A DNA stretch of 64,000 bases, taken from positions 71,296 to 135,295 of the forward strand of contig CAYIWY010000002.1 in assembly GCA_964367355.1 (NCBI GenBank). The letters run 5' to 3'. Positions 24,304 through 29,736 of this stretch are shown in pieces. The stretch's first letter is position 1. Each line of letters starts with the position of its first letter. The position numbers and the translations under genes are program-made. A model generated the notes under the pieces. It did no database searches and was not told the origin of the DNA. It saw only the letters and a list, made by a program, of their open reading frames with translations. The stretch is from an uncultured Gammaproteobacteria bacterium (lineage in GTDB: Bacteria > Patescibacteriota > Microgenomatia > Woykebacterales > RBG-16-39-9b).

Positions 24304-24800
24304 TTTTTCCTTCCTTAGAAAGCAATTTAGCGTTTAAAGTTGTATAATCGGGTCAATTGAAAGGAGAAAAGTCGTGCCGGATATACCAATGCAGAAACTC
24401 TCTGTACTACGCTTTCTCGTAATGATGATTGAAAAACGTTTGCTTGCGGACGGATTAATGTTCAATGGCCATCTGTGTGTGGTACTCACCCACCCGGAAA
24501 AGAAACTCACCTGGTTGGTAAACGACGATCCTTTCTGGCTCTCGATCAAAGATCTTGGTAATGATTACCAAATTACGGTTCTGACCATAAATCAAGATCC
24601 ACCAACTCAGAGTTATCAGGTTTCGCGAGAAAACTTGCAAACTTGGGTCGAAGCAGCAAAACCCAACCTGGACGATTGGGAAAAAATTACTCTCTGGATA
24701 CGTGAAGGTTCTAAGAGAGAAATGGGTCAGATCCCTGATCAAATTAAAGAGTGTCTTGCCTCTTAAAACCGTACACAATCTGTGTGCGGTTTTTCCTTTA
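24304..24800 (+). repeat. Copy 1 of a ~500 bp duplicated cassette (promoter + 130-aa gene + terminator)
   Basis: About 90% identical to 28816..29315 by eye. Includes the extended -10 (aaagTTGTATAAT) and SD (AAAGGAG) ahead of the GTG start. Confidence 0.8.
24374..24766 (+). CDS. Hypothetical 130-aa protein (duplicated family, copy 1)
   Basis: Near-identical paralog at 28887..29279 (LRFLVMM.EKRL..DGLMFNGHLCVVLTHPEKKLTWL...). Followed by a hairpin + U-run terminator. Confidence 0.6.
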   Translation: MPDIPMQKLSVLRFLVMMIEKRLLADGLMFNGHLCVVLTHPEKKLTWLVNDDPFWLSIKDLGNDYQITVLTINQDPPTQSYQVSRENLQTWVEAAKPNLDDWEKITLWIREGSKREMGQIPDQIKECLAS

Positions 24801-24983
24801 TTTAAAAATAAATTCAAATTTGAGTAAAAAATAAGGGAAGAATAAATTCCTTCCCTTGTTAACTAAAGTTGTCACCAAACCCCACCTCTTCTGGCCATGT
24901 CTCGGATGTGATCGTCGTCAACATCCTCCCAAGTTCGCACTCGCTAAATCTTCTCTTTTTTTATCGGGTGTATAATCTCAAAA

Positions 24984-25406
24984 ATGTCAGAACTAAAGAC
25001 AAAAGTAAATTCCGACAGTGTTAGCGACTTCCTAAACTCTGTTGCCGATGAGACCAAAAGAGCCGACAGCTTCACCCTTCTCAAAATCTTTGAAGATATC
25101 ACAGGAGAAAAACCCAAAATGTGGGGCACTAGAATCGTCGGTTTTGGGCAGTATCATTACAAATCCGAACGCAGCAGCCAAGAGGGCGACTGGCCACTGA
25201 CTGGCTTCTCCCCACGCAAGCAGGCCCTGACTCTCTATCTCATGCTTGGACTTGAAAGTAATGACGATCTACTCGGAAAACTTGGCAAACACAAGAAAAG
25301 TAGAGGTTGTCTCTACGTCAACAAACTCGCCGATGTGGATGAAAAAGTACTATGGAAACTAATCGAAAAATCAGTAGTAGAAATAAAGAAAAAGTATAAA
25401 TCTTAA
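24984..25406 (+). CDS. DUF1801-family protein
   Basis: KMWGTRIVGFGQYHYKSERSSQEGDWPLTGFSPRKQALTLYLM matches the DUF1801 signature. Extended -10 (gggTGTATAAT) upstream. Confidence 0.6.
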   Translation: MSELKTKVNSDSVSDFLNSVADETKRADSFTLLKIFEDITGEKPKMWGTRIVGFGQYHYKSERSSQEGDWPLTGFSPRKQALTLYLMLGLESNDDLLGKLGKHKKSRGCLYVNKLADVDEKVLWKLIEKSVVEIKKKYKS

Positions 25407-25416
25407 AACTTTGCTT

Positions 25417-25986
25417 CTAGGTAAATGGGTTTTTGCCCTGTTCCAATCTTGGCAATAGCTTTTGCACTCTCAGTTTTCTAGTTTCCGCCTGCTTTGCACT
25501 ATAAATGTAGTAAAGAACCTGTTTTCGCAGCGATACAGAAAACTTTTCAAAATTCTCCTCCGCATTTTTATTTTTCGCGAAGACCTCTTTCATCTGCTCT
25601 GGCAAAACCAAATCTTCCACCACATCAAAGGCAGTCCAAGACCCATCTTCCTTCGCTCTCTCCACCACTCCAAGGCCCGTCCTTGTCATTAGACCATTTT
25701 TAATTAGTCTCTCAACTCTATCTTTATTGGACTTGGCCCAAATGCTTTTTGGTTTGCGAACCGATAGATATATTTGGGAGTGTTTCTCATTGAGTTTCTT
25801 GACTGTACTATCGATCCAGCCAAAACAAAGTGCCTCCTCGACAATGTCGTCATAAGAAAGTTTATCCTGCTTAGCGAACTTGTCGTGAACAAGCCAAATA
25901 CTTTTGACCTTATCGTGATTTTTCTCAAACCATGCTCGCCAAGTTCTTCTGTCGGTAAAGTAAATTTTCTGAACATCAATTGTCAT
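25417..25986 (-). CDS. YdeI/OmpD-associated family protein
   Basis: WRAWFEKNH...SIWLV...SYDDIVEEALCFGWIDS...RKPKSIWAKSNKDRVERLI. Confidence 0.65.
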   Translation of the reverse strand: MTIDVQKIYFTDRRTWRAWFEKNHDKVKSIWLVHDKFAKQDKLSYDDIVEEALCFGWIDSTVKKLNEKHSQIYLSVRKPKSIWAKSNKDRVERLIKNGLMTRTGLGVVERAKEDGSWTAFDVVEDLVLPEQMKEVFAKNKNAEENFEKFSVSLRKQVLYYIYSAKQAETRKLRVQKLLPRLEQGKNPFT

Positions 25987-26050
25987 TTGGGAAAAGTATA
26001 TCAGAAGAAAGCGAAATCAAACGAGAAAAAACCTGGGCTCAAGGGTTAAA

Positions 26051-26740
26051 TTAATTAGTAGATTTTAGCTTAATGATTAGAGGGTTGAAGTTCGTTTTCT
26101 TGTCAAAATAATCCTCTTTTTCCAATTTCTTTAACTTTCCAACTACAAAGTAAGTTGCCGGAGTCATTACTACTTCGATCATTACCTTGAGAAACCAAGC
26201 AGAAAGAATAGATTTTATTAAAAGCCCGCTTGGAATAACATTGTATAAAGCAATTGTATAAAAGGCAGTTGTATCGGCCGCCTGTCCGAACAAAGTCGAT
26301 CCAATCGTTCTCATCCACAAATGCTTGCCTCTGGTTAACACCTTCATCTTTGCGAGCACAAAATCATTAACAAATTGTCCGGCAAATAGAGCTACCCAAG
26401 CACCGATCACTACTCTGGGAACTTGTCCTAAAACCAAGGTGTAAGCAGCGTTGCCACCAAATCCTCTAGCCGGCGGCAGAAAAACAGCCAACTGAAAAAT
26501 TATTGCCGTTAGAACAGTGGAAAGTATCAAGATCCAGGTCGCCCGCCTAGCCTGTTTGTAACCGTAGACCTCGGTCAGGACATCTCCAAAGATATAAGTT
26601 ATCGGAATGCACAAGGATGCCGCTGACAAAGTAAAAATCCCAACCTGAATTATCTTTCCGGAAATGACATTGACAATCGCCATCATCGTGATGTCGAGAA
26701 AAATAATCAGATCTAGATACTTAAAGGCTCTGTTTTTCAT
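26051..26740 (-). CDS. yhhQ: Queuosine-precursor transporter YhhQ (DUF165/VUT family)
   Basis: PITYIFGDVLTEVYGYKQARR signature, ~6 TM helices. Confidence 0.75.
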   Translation of the reverse strand: MKNRAFKYLDLIIFLDITMMAIVNVISGKIIQVGIFTLSAASLCIPITYIFGDVLTEVYGYKQARRATWILILSTVLTAIIFQLAVFLPPARGFGGNAAYTLVLGQVPRVVIGAWVALFAGQFVNDFVLAKMKVLTRGKHLWMRTIGSTLFGQAADTTAFYTIALYNVIPSGLLIKSILSAWFLKVMIEVVMTPATYFVVGKLKKLEKEDYFDKKTNFNPLIIKLKSTN

Positions 26741-28300: not shown

Positions 28301-28404
28301 CGCTTGAAAGCAAATAAAAAAGGGTCACGAGCAGAAATGCTCCCGACCCTTGATGAACAGATTGAATCTCGGTTCCCTGTTGTGTGCTTACTTTGGGGCA
28401 AATT
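28301..28404 (-). repeat. ~100 bp 3' repeat (gene tail + terminator), copy A
   Basis: Near-identical to 29327..29428. Reverse strand hairpin AAGGGTC-N18-GACCCTT + U-run. Covers the last codons (..FAPK*) of the 28388..28783 gene. Confidence 0.75.
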
Positions 28405-28783
28405 TACTTCCAAGTTGTCTGTCAAAAAAGCTGTTTTCGAATGGTTTCTTTGGAAGTTCGCCTTTCAAAAACTTAACTGCCTGAGAAATAACATCTGCCT
28501 CCTCAAAAAAAGGGTGTCCATGGATTTTGTAAATTTTCTGACTAAAGGCTAGTGTCCTCGTCCGATCCATAAAATCGTTTACATAAACAATCAGTTCGTC
28601 TGCCGTGAGATCTTCGAAACACTTCTTGCAAACAAAATTTACACCAGAGTTGTTACCTGCAGGAATGCTGTAACGCCCAACACCTGAGGAATAGAGTCTT
28701 CGCATACAGTGAAAACAGCGTCCCGGATAACAGTCCACTCCCAAGAAAAGCAGCAGTCTTGCATAGAAATTTCTCTCTGCCAT
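28388..28783 (-). CDS. Small Cys-rich protein (~131 aa)
   Basis: Start MAERNFY preceded by SD (GAAGGAGGaagaggaATG). C...C.C / C..C motifs. The longer ORF-track version (to 29023) is antisense to the 130-aa gene and is rejected. Confidence 0.45.
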   Translation of the reverse strand: MAERNFYARLLLFLGVDCYPGRCFHCMRRLYSSGVGRYSIPAGNNSGVNFVCKKCFEDLTADELIVYVNDFMDRTRTLAFSQKIYKIHGHPFFEEADVISQAVKFLKGELPKKPFENSFFDRQLGSKFAPK

Positions 28784-28815
28784 TCCTCTTCCTCCTTCTT
28801 TCATCGAAAGTATAG

Positions 28816-29315
28816 TTTTTCCTTCCTCAGAAAGCAAATTAGCATTTAAAGTTGTATAATCTACCTCAGTTGAAAGGAGAAAAGCTGTGCCGGAAACACC
28901 AGGGCAGAAACTTTCCATTCTGCGTTTTTTAGTGATGATGGTTGAAAAACGGTTGGCCAAGGACGGACTAATGTTCAACGGCCATCTGTGTGTGGTACTT
29001 ACCCACCCGGAAAAGAAACTCACCTGGCTACCGCAAGACGATCCTTTCTGGCTCTCGATAAAAGATCTTGGTGGTGAATACCAAATTACGGTCCTGACTG
29101 TTAATCAAGATCCCCCAATGCAGAGCTATCAGGTTTCGCGAGAAAACTTGCAAACTTGGGTCGAAGCAACAAAACCCAACCTGGAGGGCTGGGAAAAGAT
29201 TACTCTCTGGATTCGTGAAGGGTCTAAGAGAGAAATGCGCGAGATCCCTGATCAAATTAAAGAATGTCTTGCCTCTTAAAGCCGTACACAACTCGTGTGC
29301 GGTTTTCCCTTTTTA
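28816..29315 (+). repeat. Copy 2 of the ~500 bp duplicated cassette
   Basis: See 24304..24800. Confidence 0.8.
28887..29279 (+). CDS. Hypothetical 130-aa protein (duplicated family, copy 2)
   Basis: Paralog of 24374..24766. Confidence 0.6.
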   Translation: MPETPGQKLSILRFLVMMVEKRLAKDGLMFNGHLCVVLTHPEKKLTWLPQDDPFWLSIKDLGGEYQITVLTVNQDPPMQSYQVSRENLQTWVEATKPNLEGWEKITLWIREGSKREMREIPDQIKECLAS

Positions 29316-29326
29316 ACTTTCTTTCC

Positions 29327-29428
29327 CGCTTGAAACCAAATTAAAAGGGTCACGAGCAGAAATGCTCCCGACCCTTGATGAACAGATTGAATCTCCGTTC
29401 CCTGTTGTGTGCTTACTTTGGGGCAAAT
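29327..29428 (-). repeat. ~100 bp 3' repeat (gene tail + terminator), copy B
   Basis: See 28301..28404. Covers the tail (..RFAPK*) of the 29413..29736 gene. Confidence 0.75.
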
Positions 29429-29736
29429 CTCCAGGAGGTGTCTGCAAAAAGATTCCCCAACGTAACTAGGCTGTTTTTGAGCCAATTGGCAACCGAAAGG
29501 ACAAAGAACAACCAAAGAAAAACTCCCAACAGGCCTACCATTATGACGACGGTTATGGCAACGACCATGTAGAGGCCAAACCATCCGAGCAAAACGGCAC
29601 CAAAGAAATTGACTGCTTCACCCCGAGTCTGAATTTCCAGTCCAGCCAAAACAACGACCGCTCTTGTCGTAATGTACCCTACCGGTAGCCAGGTTATCAA
29701 CATGAAAACCCAATTCCCTACAATCAAATCATGCAT
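29413..29736 (-). CDS. Small membrane protein (107 aa)
   Basis: Three hydrophobic helices. The C-terminal tail is encoded by the shared 3' repeat. Confidence 0.5.
   Translation of the reverse strand: MHDLIVGNWVFMLITWLPVGYITTRAVVVLAGLEIQTRGEAVNFFGAVLLGWFGLYMVVAITVVIMVGLLGVFLWLFFVLSVANWLKNSLVTLGNLFADTSWRFAPK

Follow-up and report, generated by a model that had tools for sequence, protein, structure and literature searches.

Duplicated transcription units, a re-used promoter-like element and a near-identical gene-end module in a small variable islet of a Patescibacteria chromosome

We analysed a 64 000-nt stretch of the forward strand of contig CAYIWY010000002.1 (positions 71 296–135 295, assembly GCA_964367355.1; hereafter the window) from an uncultured bacterium assigned to the Patescibacteriota, the source of which is Hainich groundwater (contig Hain_H52_01um_R1_11, 214 kb). 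A variable islet of 6.15 kb (24179–30332 of the window) extends from the stop codon of a DEAD-box helicase gene (22904–24178, plus strand) to that of the convergent HMA copper-chaperone gene of a copper-resistance operon (30333–30554, minus strand), both of which are conserved anchors. The islet contains two copies of a unit encoding a 130-aa orphan protein, five copies of a ~30-nt promoter-like element on the minus strand (hereafter P-), and two copies of a 3′ module that comprises the end of the coding region, the 3′ untranslated region (UTR) and the terminator of two otherwise unrelated genes. We consider it fairly probable that these repeats represent at least two layers of segmental duplication, combined with promoter re-use and probable gene conversion, in a small flexible islet.

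The islet would then be a patchwork of single-gene transcription units, each with a promoter and an intrinsic terminator. The older layer would be a duplication of the whole 130-aa unit, including promoter, ribosome-binding site, open reading frame (ORF) and terminator, at a synonymous divergence (dS) of ~0.43. The other layer would be a much younger, or gene-converted, copy of an 82–86-nt piece with gene end, 3′ UTR and terminator, through which two ORFan genes would have received the same last four codons. The ~30-nt P- appears to have been re-used before three unrelated islet genes, as well as before the RidA gene in two relatives, and two of its copies would now be orphaned. Read in this way, the locus provides a compact, well-resolved case study of accessory-gene gain, shuffling and loss at a single hotspot of a streamlined Patescibacteria genome without recognisable mobile machinery nearby, with whole miniature transcription units duplicated and a terminator block rewriting the C-termini of ORFans. 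It also offers candidate promoters for a phylum with few defined ones, and current understanding is not overturned.

The duplicated 130-aa gene units

The two units form direct repeats of ~500 bp, copy A at 24296–24800 and copy B at 28808–29315. The initial annotation of this region had recognised both segments and judged them about 90% identical by eye; the segments are real and their measured overall identity is nearer 86%. As had also been described, each unit carries a Shine–Dalgarno (SD) sequence, a GTG-start 130-aa gene and a hairpin terminator. The gene is located on the plus strand at 24374–24766 in copy A and at 28887–29279 in copy B, in both cases with GGAG 7 nt 5′ of the start codon. 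Comparison of the two ORFs revealed differences at 53 of 393 nt (86.5% identity), which change 18 of 130 aa (86%), and the 54-nt block 5′ of them is 91% identical. The nucleotide changes at the first, second and third codon positions numbered 15, 8 and 30, respectively, and the Nei–Gojobori estimates were 0.43 for dS and 0.088 for the nonsynonymous divergence (dN). The resulting dN/dS of 0.21 between the copies demonstrates that the 130-aa gene is a real protein-coding gene; the duplication is old and purifying selection persists on both copies. Copy A has evolved faster than its paralogue and carries 8 derived residues, where copy B has 3. Since A and B are mutual closest relatives, the duplication appears to have occurred within the lineage and not by import.

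Upstream of each ORF we found the 14-nt block AAAGTTGTATAATC, at 24336–24349 in copy A (P+(A), -10 TATAAT at 24343–24348) and at 28848–28861 in copy B (P+(B), -10 TATAAT at 28855–28860), which we infer to be the plus-strand promoter of the 130-aa gene. The block was identical in all five aligned upstream regions (A, B and the orthologous loci L001, L004 and L006), while the encoded proteins are only 60–86% identical, and this conservation across orthologues argues for function. The initial annotation had described an extended -10 promoter. P+ has a perfect TATAAT without a recognisable -35, but it is not a canonical extended -10 (TGnTATAAT) because TG abuts TATAAT directly. The 130-aa gene probably forms a transcript of its own, driven by a -10-dominated promoter. 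At locus L006, homology begins just 5′ of the P+ block and does not include P-.

The predicted intrinsic terminators of the 130-aa genes, at 24765–24793 in copy A (folding free energy dG -16.8 kcal/mol, z-score -7.0) and at 29278–29306 in copy B (-16.4 kcal/mol, z -5.7), both on the plus strand, each consist of a hairpin that straddles the stop codon and a following T-run. In five orthologues the dG ranged from -14.6 to -18.8 kcal/mol and the z from -5.3 to -7.0; the position of the terminator was conserved among them, while the stem sequences differed. Both the 130-aa genes and the 3′ module have a stable G+C-rich hairpin at or just after the stop codon followed by a U-run, as expected of intrinsic terminators. 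Promoter block, ribosome-binding site and terminator were retained in all of the full-length orthologues with flanking sequence on the contig, down to 60% amino acid identity, and the 130-aa unit is accordingly predicted to be self-contained and monocistronic.

In the L001 and L006 loci, an intact winged-helix gene is convergent with the 130-aa gene. In the window, the last 27 codons of such a gene were found on the minus strand next to copy A (24875–24955; tblastn, 78% identity to residues 80–106 of the 106-aa protein of L001, E 2.5e-9), together with the predicted minus-strand terminator of this remnant (24833–24857), which indicates that copy A retains the ancestral downstream neighbour. 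At L006 (well H32), a deletion cuts the 130-aa gene after codon 62 and fuses it to the spacer and the antisense of the winged-helix gene, resulting in a 126-aa chimeric ORF (P0004). The 130-aa gene is evidently dispensable in that population.

The shared 3′ module and the re-used minus-strand element

Two minus-strand ORFans of the islet, a 131-aa Cys-rich protein gene (28388–28783; CX4CX2C...CX2C) and a 107-aa predicted membrane protein gene (29413–29736) whose sole database match was itself, both end in FAPK followed by the stop codon and are otherwise unrelated. Copy 1 of the 3′ module (28322–28403, minus strand) contains the FAPK codons and stop of the 131-aa gene, a 38-nt 3′ UTR and a hairpin at 28322–28349 followed by a T-run, and copy 2 (29347–29428, minus strand) contains the last four codons (FAPK) and stop of the 107-aa gene, the 3′ UTR and a hairpin at 29347–29374. 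On the minus strand the module hairpin had a dG of -21.8 kcal/mol and a z of -5.6, and a T-run follows. A perfect palindrome, AGATTcAATCT, is situated in the 3′ UTR between stop codon and terminator in both copies (28352–28362 and 29377–29387). The near-identity of the two gene ends that had been reported initially was borne out, with 85 of 86 positions matching between 28318–28403 and 29343–29428. The identity changes stepwise: 81 of 82 in the core (28322–28403 versus 29347–29428), 28 of 38 (74%) in the adjoining T-run and P-, and ~45% in the upstream coding sequence, and the coding regions beyond the module have one local patch of similarity with indels. The module copies are 1025 nt apart and bound a 1025-bp unit.

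At the divergence of the gene duplicates (13.5%), one change or fewer per 86 nt has a probability of 5.5e-5. The near-identity of the core thus suggests that it was copied much later than the rest, or that gene conversion between the two copies, separated by 1 kb, has homogenised it. Alternatively, selection might hold the 82-nt core identical because it functions as RNA or DNA beyond termination, for example as a 3′ UTR-derived small RNA, an operator or a stabilising element, which we consider unlikely. The excess of core identity (81 of 82) over the flanking P- (74%) and the gene duplicates (86%) agrees with such a function, the core is identical again in a sister strain from well H41 (L070), and the palindrome would be in keeping with a protein-binding operator. 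Against this, no Rfam family was found in the window at the gathering threshold or in the islet at E up to 1, where only a chance match to mir-335 appeared (E 0.69). The fold of the whole module was unexceptional (z = -1.84, equalled by 9 of 200 shuffles), only the terminator hairpin standing out; and the module, present in two copies only, is missing in the related loci L001, L007 and L008. A scan for tRNA and transfer-messenger RNA genes detected none.

A further alternative is that the module, as terminator plus P-, is a miniature non-autonomous mobile element that inserts at gene ends and supplies a terminator together with an outward promoter. The same ~115-nt block is found at the 3′ end of two unrelated genes, where it rewrites the last codons, and Correia, ERIC and REPIN elements, miniature repeats that carry promoters or terminators according to a commentary (PMC3575422) on Matus-Garcia, Nijveen & van Passel (NAR 2012), are likewise short non-coding blocks able to overlap ORF ends and supply transcription signals. 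Unlike these, the islet module has neither terminal inverted repeats nor target-site duplications, it is present in two copies in 64 kb that are adjacent, 1 kb apart, and its identity drops in steps (99%, 74%, 45%) without sharp termini. Exact-pattern scans with the module terminator yielded 0 matches each in GTDB genomes, JGI metagenomes and IMG/VR. With no inverted repeats at its ends, two copies in the window and none in these three public collections, the module does not resemble a miniature inverted-repeat transposable element or a REP-like repeat, and we regard an origin of this kind as quite improbable.

The window derives from a short-read metagenome assembly and many short contigs break at the module, so a mis-joined or expanded repeat, which the initial annotation had named as a possible refutation of its reading, had to be considered. 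Such an artefact is extremely improbable. Short contigs ending at the module are expected of a true repeat, and four long contigs, together with several short ones, show the same order in independent assemblies of Hainich wells H52 and H41 and in Logan assemblies. Contigs span both the junction of the 107-aa gene, module and 130-aa copy B (L078) and that of copy B, 131-aa gene and module (L070 and L084), and since the gene copies differ at 13.5% of sites, the assembler cannot have generated the duplication. The low-coverage H52 contig L084 starts (positions 1–40) with 38 nt of unrelated sequence that meet the 131-aa gene at an internal position, whereas the module and the 246-aa gene downstream are otherwise identical to those of the window; the joint is either a natural junction or a chimeric contig end. 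In L070 (140–160), codon 14 of the 131-aa ORF is changed from GGA to TGA, a nonsense change, with two missense changes and one silent change relative to the window, which hints that this ORFan is decaying or unconstrained.

P- follows the pattern TTGCTT-17/18-TAnAAT, and its five islet copies, all on the minus strand, are 74–90% alike. P-(M1) (28284–28313, TTGCTT-18-TAGAAT), the best nhmmer match (E 7.7e-7), precedes the 246-aa gene (27536–28276, minus strand; no family match), P-(B) (28809–28837, TTGCTT-17-TATACT) stands before the 131-aa gene in divergent orientation to P+(B), and P-(C) (29816–29845, TTGCTT-18-TAAAAT) lies 80 nt upstream of the 107-aa gene. P- thus precedes three unrelated genes in the islet. 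The other two copies have no gene downstream: P-(A) (24297–24325, TTGCTT-17-TATAAT) is an orphan directed towards the end of the helicase gene, whereas P-(M2) (29310–29339), a degenerate copy with TTGGTT-18-TAAAAA (nhmmer E 1.5e-3), is antisense into copy B. P-(M1) and P-(M2) are placed at the promoter-distal end of their 3′ modules and are 74% identical to each other. P-(C) also accounts for what had been taken for a partial third copy of the promoter of the 130-aa gene (29816–29869, 61% identity): only the first ~32 nt correspond, TTGTATAAT is missing and the element is oppositely oriented.

The P- pattern had seven matches, where 1.2 are expected by chance, and the generic pattern TTGNTT-17/18-TANA[AC]T had nine in the window against 1.65 in shuffles. 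A match at 1316–1337 was rejected as a chance occurrence, being inside a gene and in the opposite orientation. The nhmmer matches to P- were confined to the islet and to L001 and L008, in both of which P- precedes RidA. In L001 the RidA ATG is 6 nt past the -10 and has no SD; in L008 the element and RidA occupy another locus, which lacks a neighbouring 130-aa gene. The 246-aa gene similarly lacks an SD, with its ATG 7 nt past the -10 of P-(M1). The 131-aa gene has a leader of ~18 nt after P-(B) that contains an SD, and the leader of the 107-aa gene after P-(C) measures 80 nt and also includes an SD. Genes without an SD that start 6–7 nt past the -10 of P- suggest leaderless mRNA, and the 246-aa gene is probably leaderless, judging from its start region. 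From these placements we take P- to be a probable true promoter, in many cases leaderless, copies of which came to stand before unrelated genes.

One of the nine matches to the generic pattern precedes a gene of the Vut_1 (queuosine-precursor/vitamin transporter) family, where TTGGTT-17-TAAAAT is followed after 9 nt by an ATG without an SD (26740–26778), which suggests that leaderless-type starts may be more widespread in this genome. The literature offered nothing usable on leaderless translation in the candidate phyla radiation.

Islet contents in related genomes and comparison with known systems

Synteny was compared among relatives, as proposed with the initial annotation, and proved variable at the islet. 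In L008 (helicase 75% identical), which is collinear with the window from ~9.1 to 36 kb, the site is empty: only 48 bp are found in place of the islet, namely the helicase stop, a short spacer and the stop of the convergent HMA gene. In L001, the helicase of which is 95% identical over most of its length, the site holds 5.8 kb of mostly different genes, encoding an M23 peptidase, an aldo-keto reductase, RidA, one 130-aa protein, and 65-aa, 106-aa winged-helix, 113-aa and 91-aa proteins. L007 (82%) carries another gene set, in which only DUF1801 and DUF2214-like membrane genes are common with the window. Beyond these, the closest helicases were in metagenome-assembled genomes of Daviesbacteria and Levybacteria (59–65%), which places the host among Patescibacteria of the Microgenomates type. 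Sequence similarity between the four loci breaks off at the stop codon of the helicase gene, and the GC content of the islet is not deviant.

The breakpoints of natural variants coincide with element edges. Sister strain L070 matches the window from the start of copy B through the 131-aa gene and the module. The match is lost immediately past GGAAAAAGT, where the spacer of P- ends at the -10 of P-(M1), and L070 continues into the terminator of another convergent gene, which indicates that breakpoints in the population really do fall at element edges. In L006 the divergence lies between P- and P+, and in both L008 and L001 it follows directly on the -35 of P-. As a separate observation, a block with the M23 peptidase, aldo-keto reductase and RidA genes, with P- before RidA, is shared by L008 (17810–20690) and L001 (2904–6030) at 86–96% protein identity; it is inside the islet in L001 and ~6–9 kb past the copper operon in L008, and its different sites imply that whole blocks relocate between genomes.

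Flexible genomic islets are hypervariable stretches that are flanked by conserved core genes and interrupt an otherwise shared synteny. The locus resembles them in its conserved anchors, the empty site in one relative, the different accessory and ORFan genes in others, and its remnants and pseudogenes, but it is only 6 kb long, has no tRNA, integrase or insertion sequence at its border, and contains internal promoter and terminator repeats. Elsewhere the window has the gene content of an ordinary chromosome (S6, SSB, S18, YchF, RecR, DnaX, CysS, Pth, Mfd and pilus genes).

The initial annotation had proposed cassette shuffling by recombination at the shared 3′ module. The recombination itself is plausible in view of the L070 breakpoint and the core divergence of 1 in 82 against 13.5% for the gene copies, but no integrase, transposase or recognisable mobile-cassette system accompanies it in the 64 kb. 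In its stronger form, the junctions would be recombination sites of a lineage-specific cassette exchange, integron-like in logic and not in parts, that inserts self-expressed single-gene units. The natural-variant breakpoints in L070, L006, L008 and L001 are what such an exchange would leave, the module copies bound the 1025-bp unit like direct repeats after Campbell-type insertion, and the islet content differs in each relative. Integron cassette arrays likewise have a short repeat 3′ of unrelated small genes and a strain-variable content. Unlike in those arrays, the genes here are not promoterless cassettes of one orientation: they run in both orientations, each with a promoter-like element and a terminator, and the repeat is a plain intrinsic terminator, its sole inverted repeat being the hairpin with its T-run. 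Pfam scans and gene tables, covering nearly all ORFs of at least 110 aa, revealed no integrase, IntI tyrosine recombinase or transposase in the 64 kb, the only recombinase being RecR, and neither module nor its flanks contain a GTTRRRY or RYYYAAC 7-mer of the attC core type. In addition, the collection scans were empty for the module, and P- copies only 74–90% alike point to old paralogy rather than a conserved site. We therefore consider a cassette exchange decidedly unlikely, and its variant in which an undescribed exchange, either integrase-independent or encoded at a distance, would act at the junctions, with the 130-aa protein as a recurrent component, very unlikely. If true, it would mean that self-expressed single-gene units are assembled at a fixed chromosomal hotspot in a Patescibacteria lineage.

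The re-use of P- also invites comparison with putative mobile promoters (Matus-Garcia, Nijveen & van Passel, NAR 2012; commentary PMC3575422), the published definition of which demands 50 nt or more with an identity of 80% or higher between -150 and -50. Like these, P- is a homologous upstream non-coding sequence before unrelated genes with no known mobile element attached. Unlike them, it is only ~30 nt long, its copies are less uniform (74–90%) and it includes the -10, and the only near-identical piece of the islet exceeding 50 nt is a gene end with terminator and not a promoter. This 82-nt, 99%-identical block does lie upstream of the 246-aa gene, while its twin has no same-strand gene downstream.

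Several points weigh against segmental duplication with promoter re-use and gene conversion as the explanation of the islet. The promoter activity of P- and P+ is deduced from sequence, P- has only three of six matches to TTGACA and a sigma-70 scan did not call it, and the copy counts of P- and the module cover 64 kb of the genome. Function instead of gene conversion could also account for the near-identical module core. No variant without the 1025-bp unit (the junction of 107-aa gene, module and 246-aa gene) was found among the contigs encoding both proteins, short contigs stopping at the repeat. Moreover, the 131-aa and 107-aa proteins are ORFans, one with a nonsense change in a sister strain, and some of the islet genes may be decaying or spurious. 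Finally, the function of the 130-aa protein is not assigned by its predicted fold.

The 130-aa protein family and neighbouring regions

The 130-aa protein is lineage-restricted and cytoplasmic. Its family has ~6 members: three matches among 5.8 billion clusters, two more among 1.84 billion representatives, of which one is the truncated P0004 and the other the distant P0005, and copy B of the window. A protein-pattern scan of JGI metagenomes confirmed 0 members. It is thus a very rare orphan family, ~6 members among 15 billion proteins, with an unusually conserved promoter. No match was found for the 130-aa protein in Pfam, NCBIfam, PADLOC or PHROG, including at permissive thresholds (E up to 10), and the 131-aa, 107-aa and 246-aa proteins had none in the scans of the same four resources. 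A sequence profile search of the 130-aa protein against PDB returned nothing below E 0.1.

Structure prediction followed by Foldseek, as had been recommended initially, yielded no significant fold match. The AlphaFold2 model has one long helix at the N-terminus, a sheet of three strands and three helices at the C-terminus (pLDDT 66 with an alignment of four sequences and 65 with five), and Foldseek of the model against PDB and BFVD gave no match with E < 0.03 or a template-modelling score > 0.4. WGR-domain and PUR-alpha-like chains recurred among the non-significant top matches and may provide a weak lead.

The initial annotation had also suggested an immunity-gene or variable-cargo array, while remarking that no toxin partner could be identified. 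The remark holds: no toxin-domain gene adjoins the 130-aa gene in any of the five contexts, where the neighbours all differ save the convergent winged-helix gene (L001, L006 and the window remnant). An immunity or antitoxin-like role would be in keeping with a small, lineage-restricted protein that is duplicated in a variable islet, and a PIN toxin gene is found ~6 kb upstream, outside the islet. On the other hand, no known immunity family was matched, the gene is predicted to be monocistronic with its own promoter and terminator, the L006 population carries the truncation without visible consequence, and the 64 kb contain no integrase or transposase. Such a role is highly improbable, and nothing supports a link of the 130-aa protein to a toxin or defence system.

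Among the remaining islet genes, one (26799–27503) encodes a 234-aa protein with an N-terminal TrmB-type helix-turn-helix and a C-terminal PLD-like/DUF7436 domain, with a weak PADLOC match to DrmC (E 6.8e-4). A second variable stretch was found 5′ of the helicase gene (18139–22900), ~4.8 kb long against ~1.3 kb in L008 (8594–9930), which contains the PIN-domain gene (18151–18525) with a 60-aa partner, a P-type cation ATPase gene (19297–21858) and two small ORFs. Further upstream, two adjacent large paralogues (5952–7559, with a CARDB domain, and 7631–9073) have a common 143-nt repeat with 71% identity (7452–7594 versus 8951–9093).

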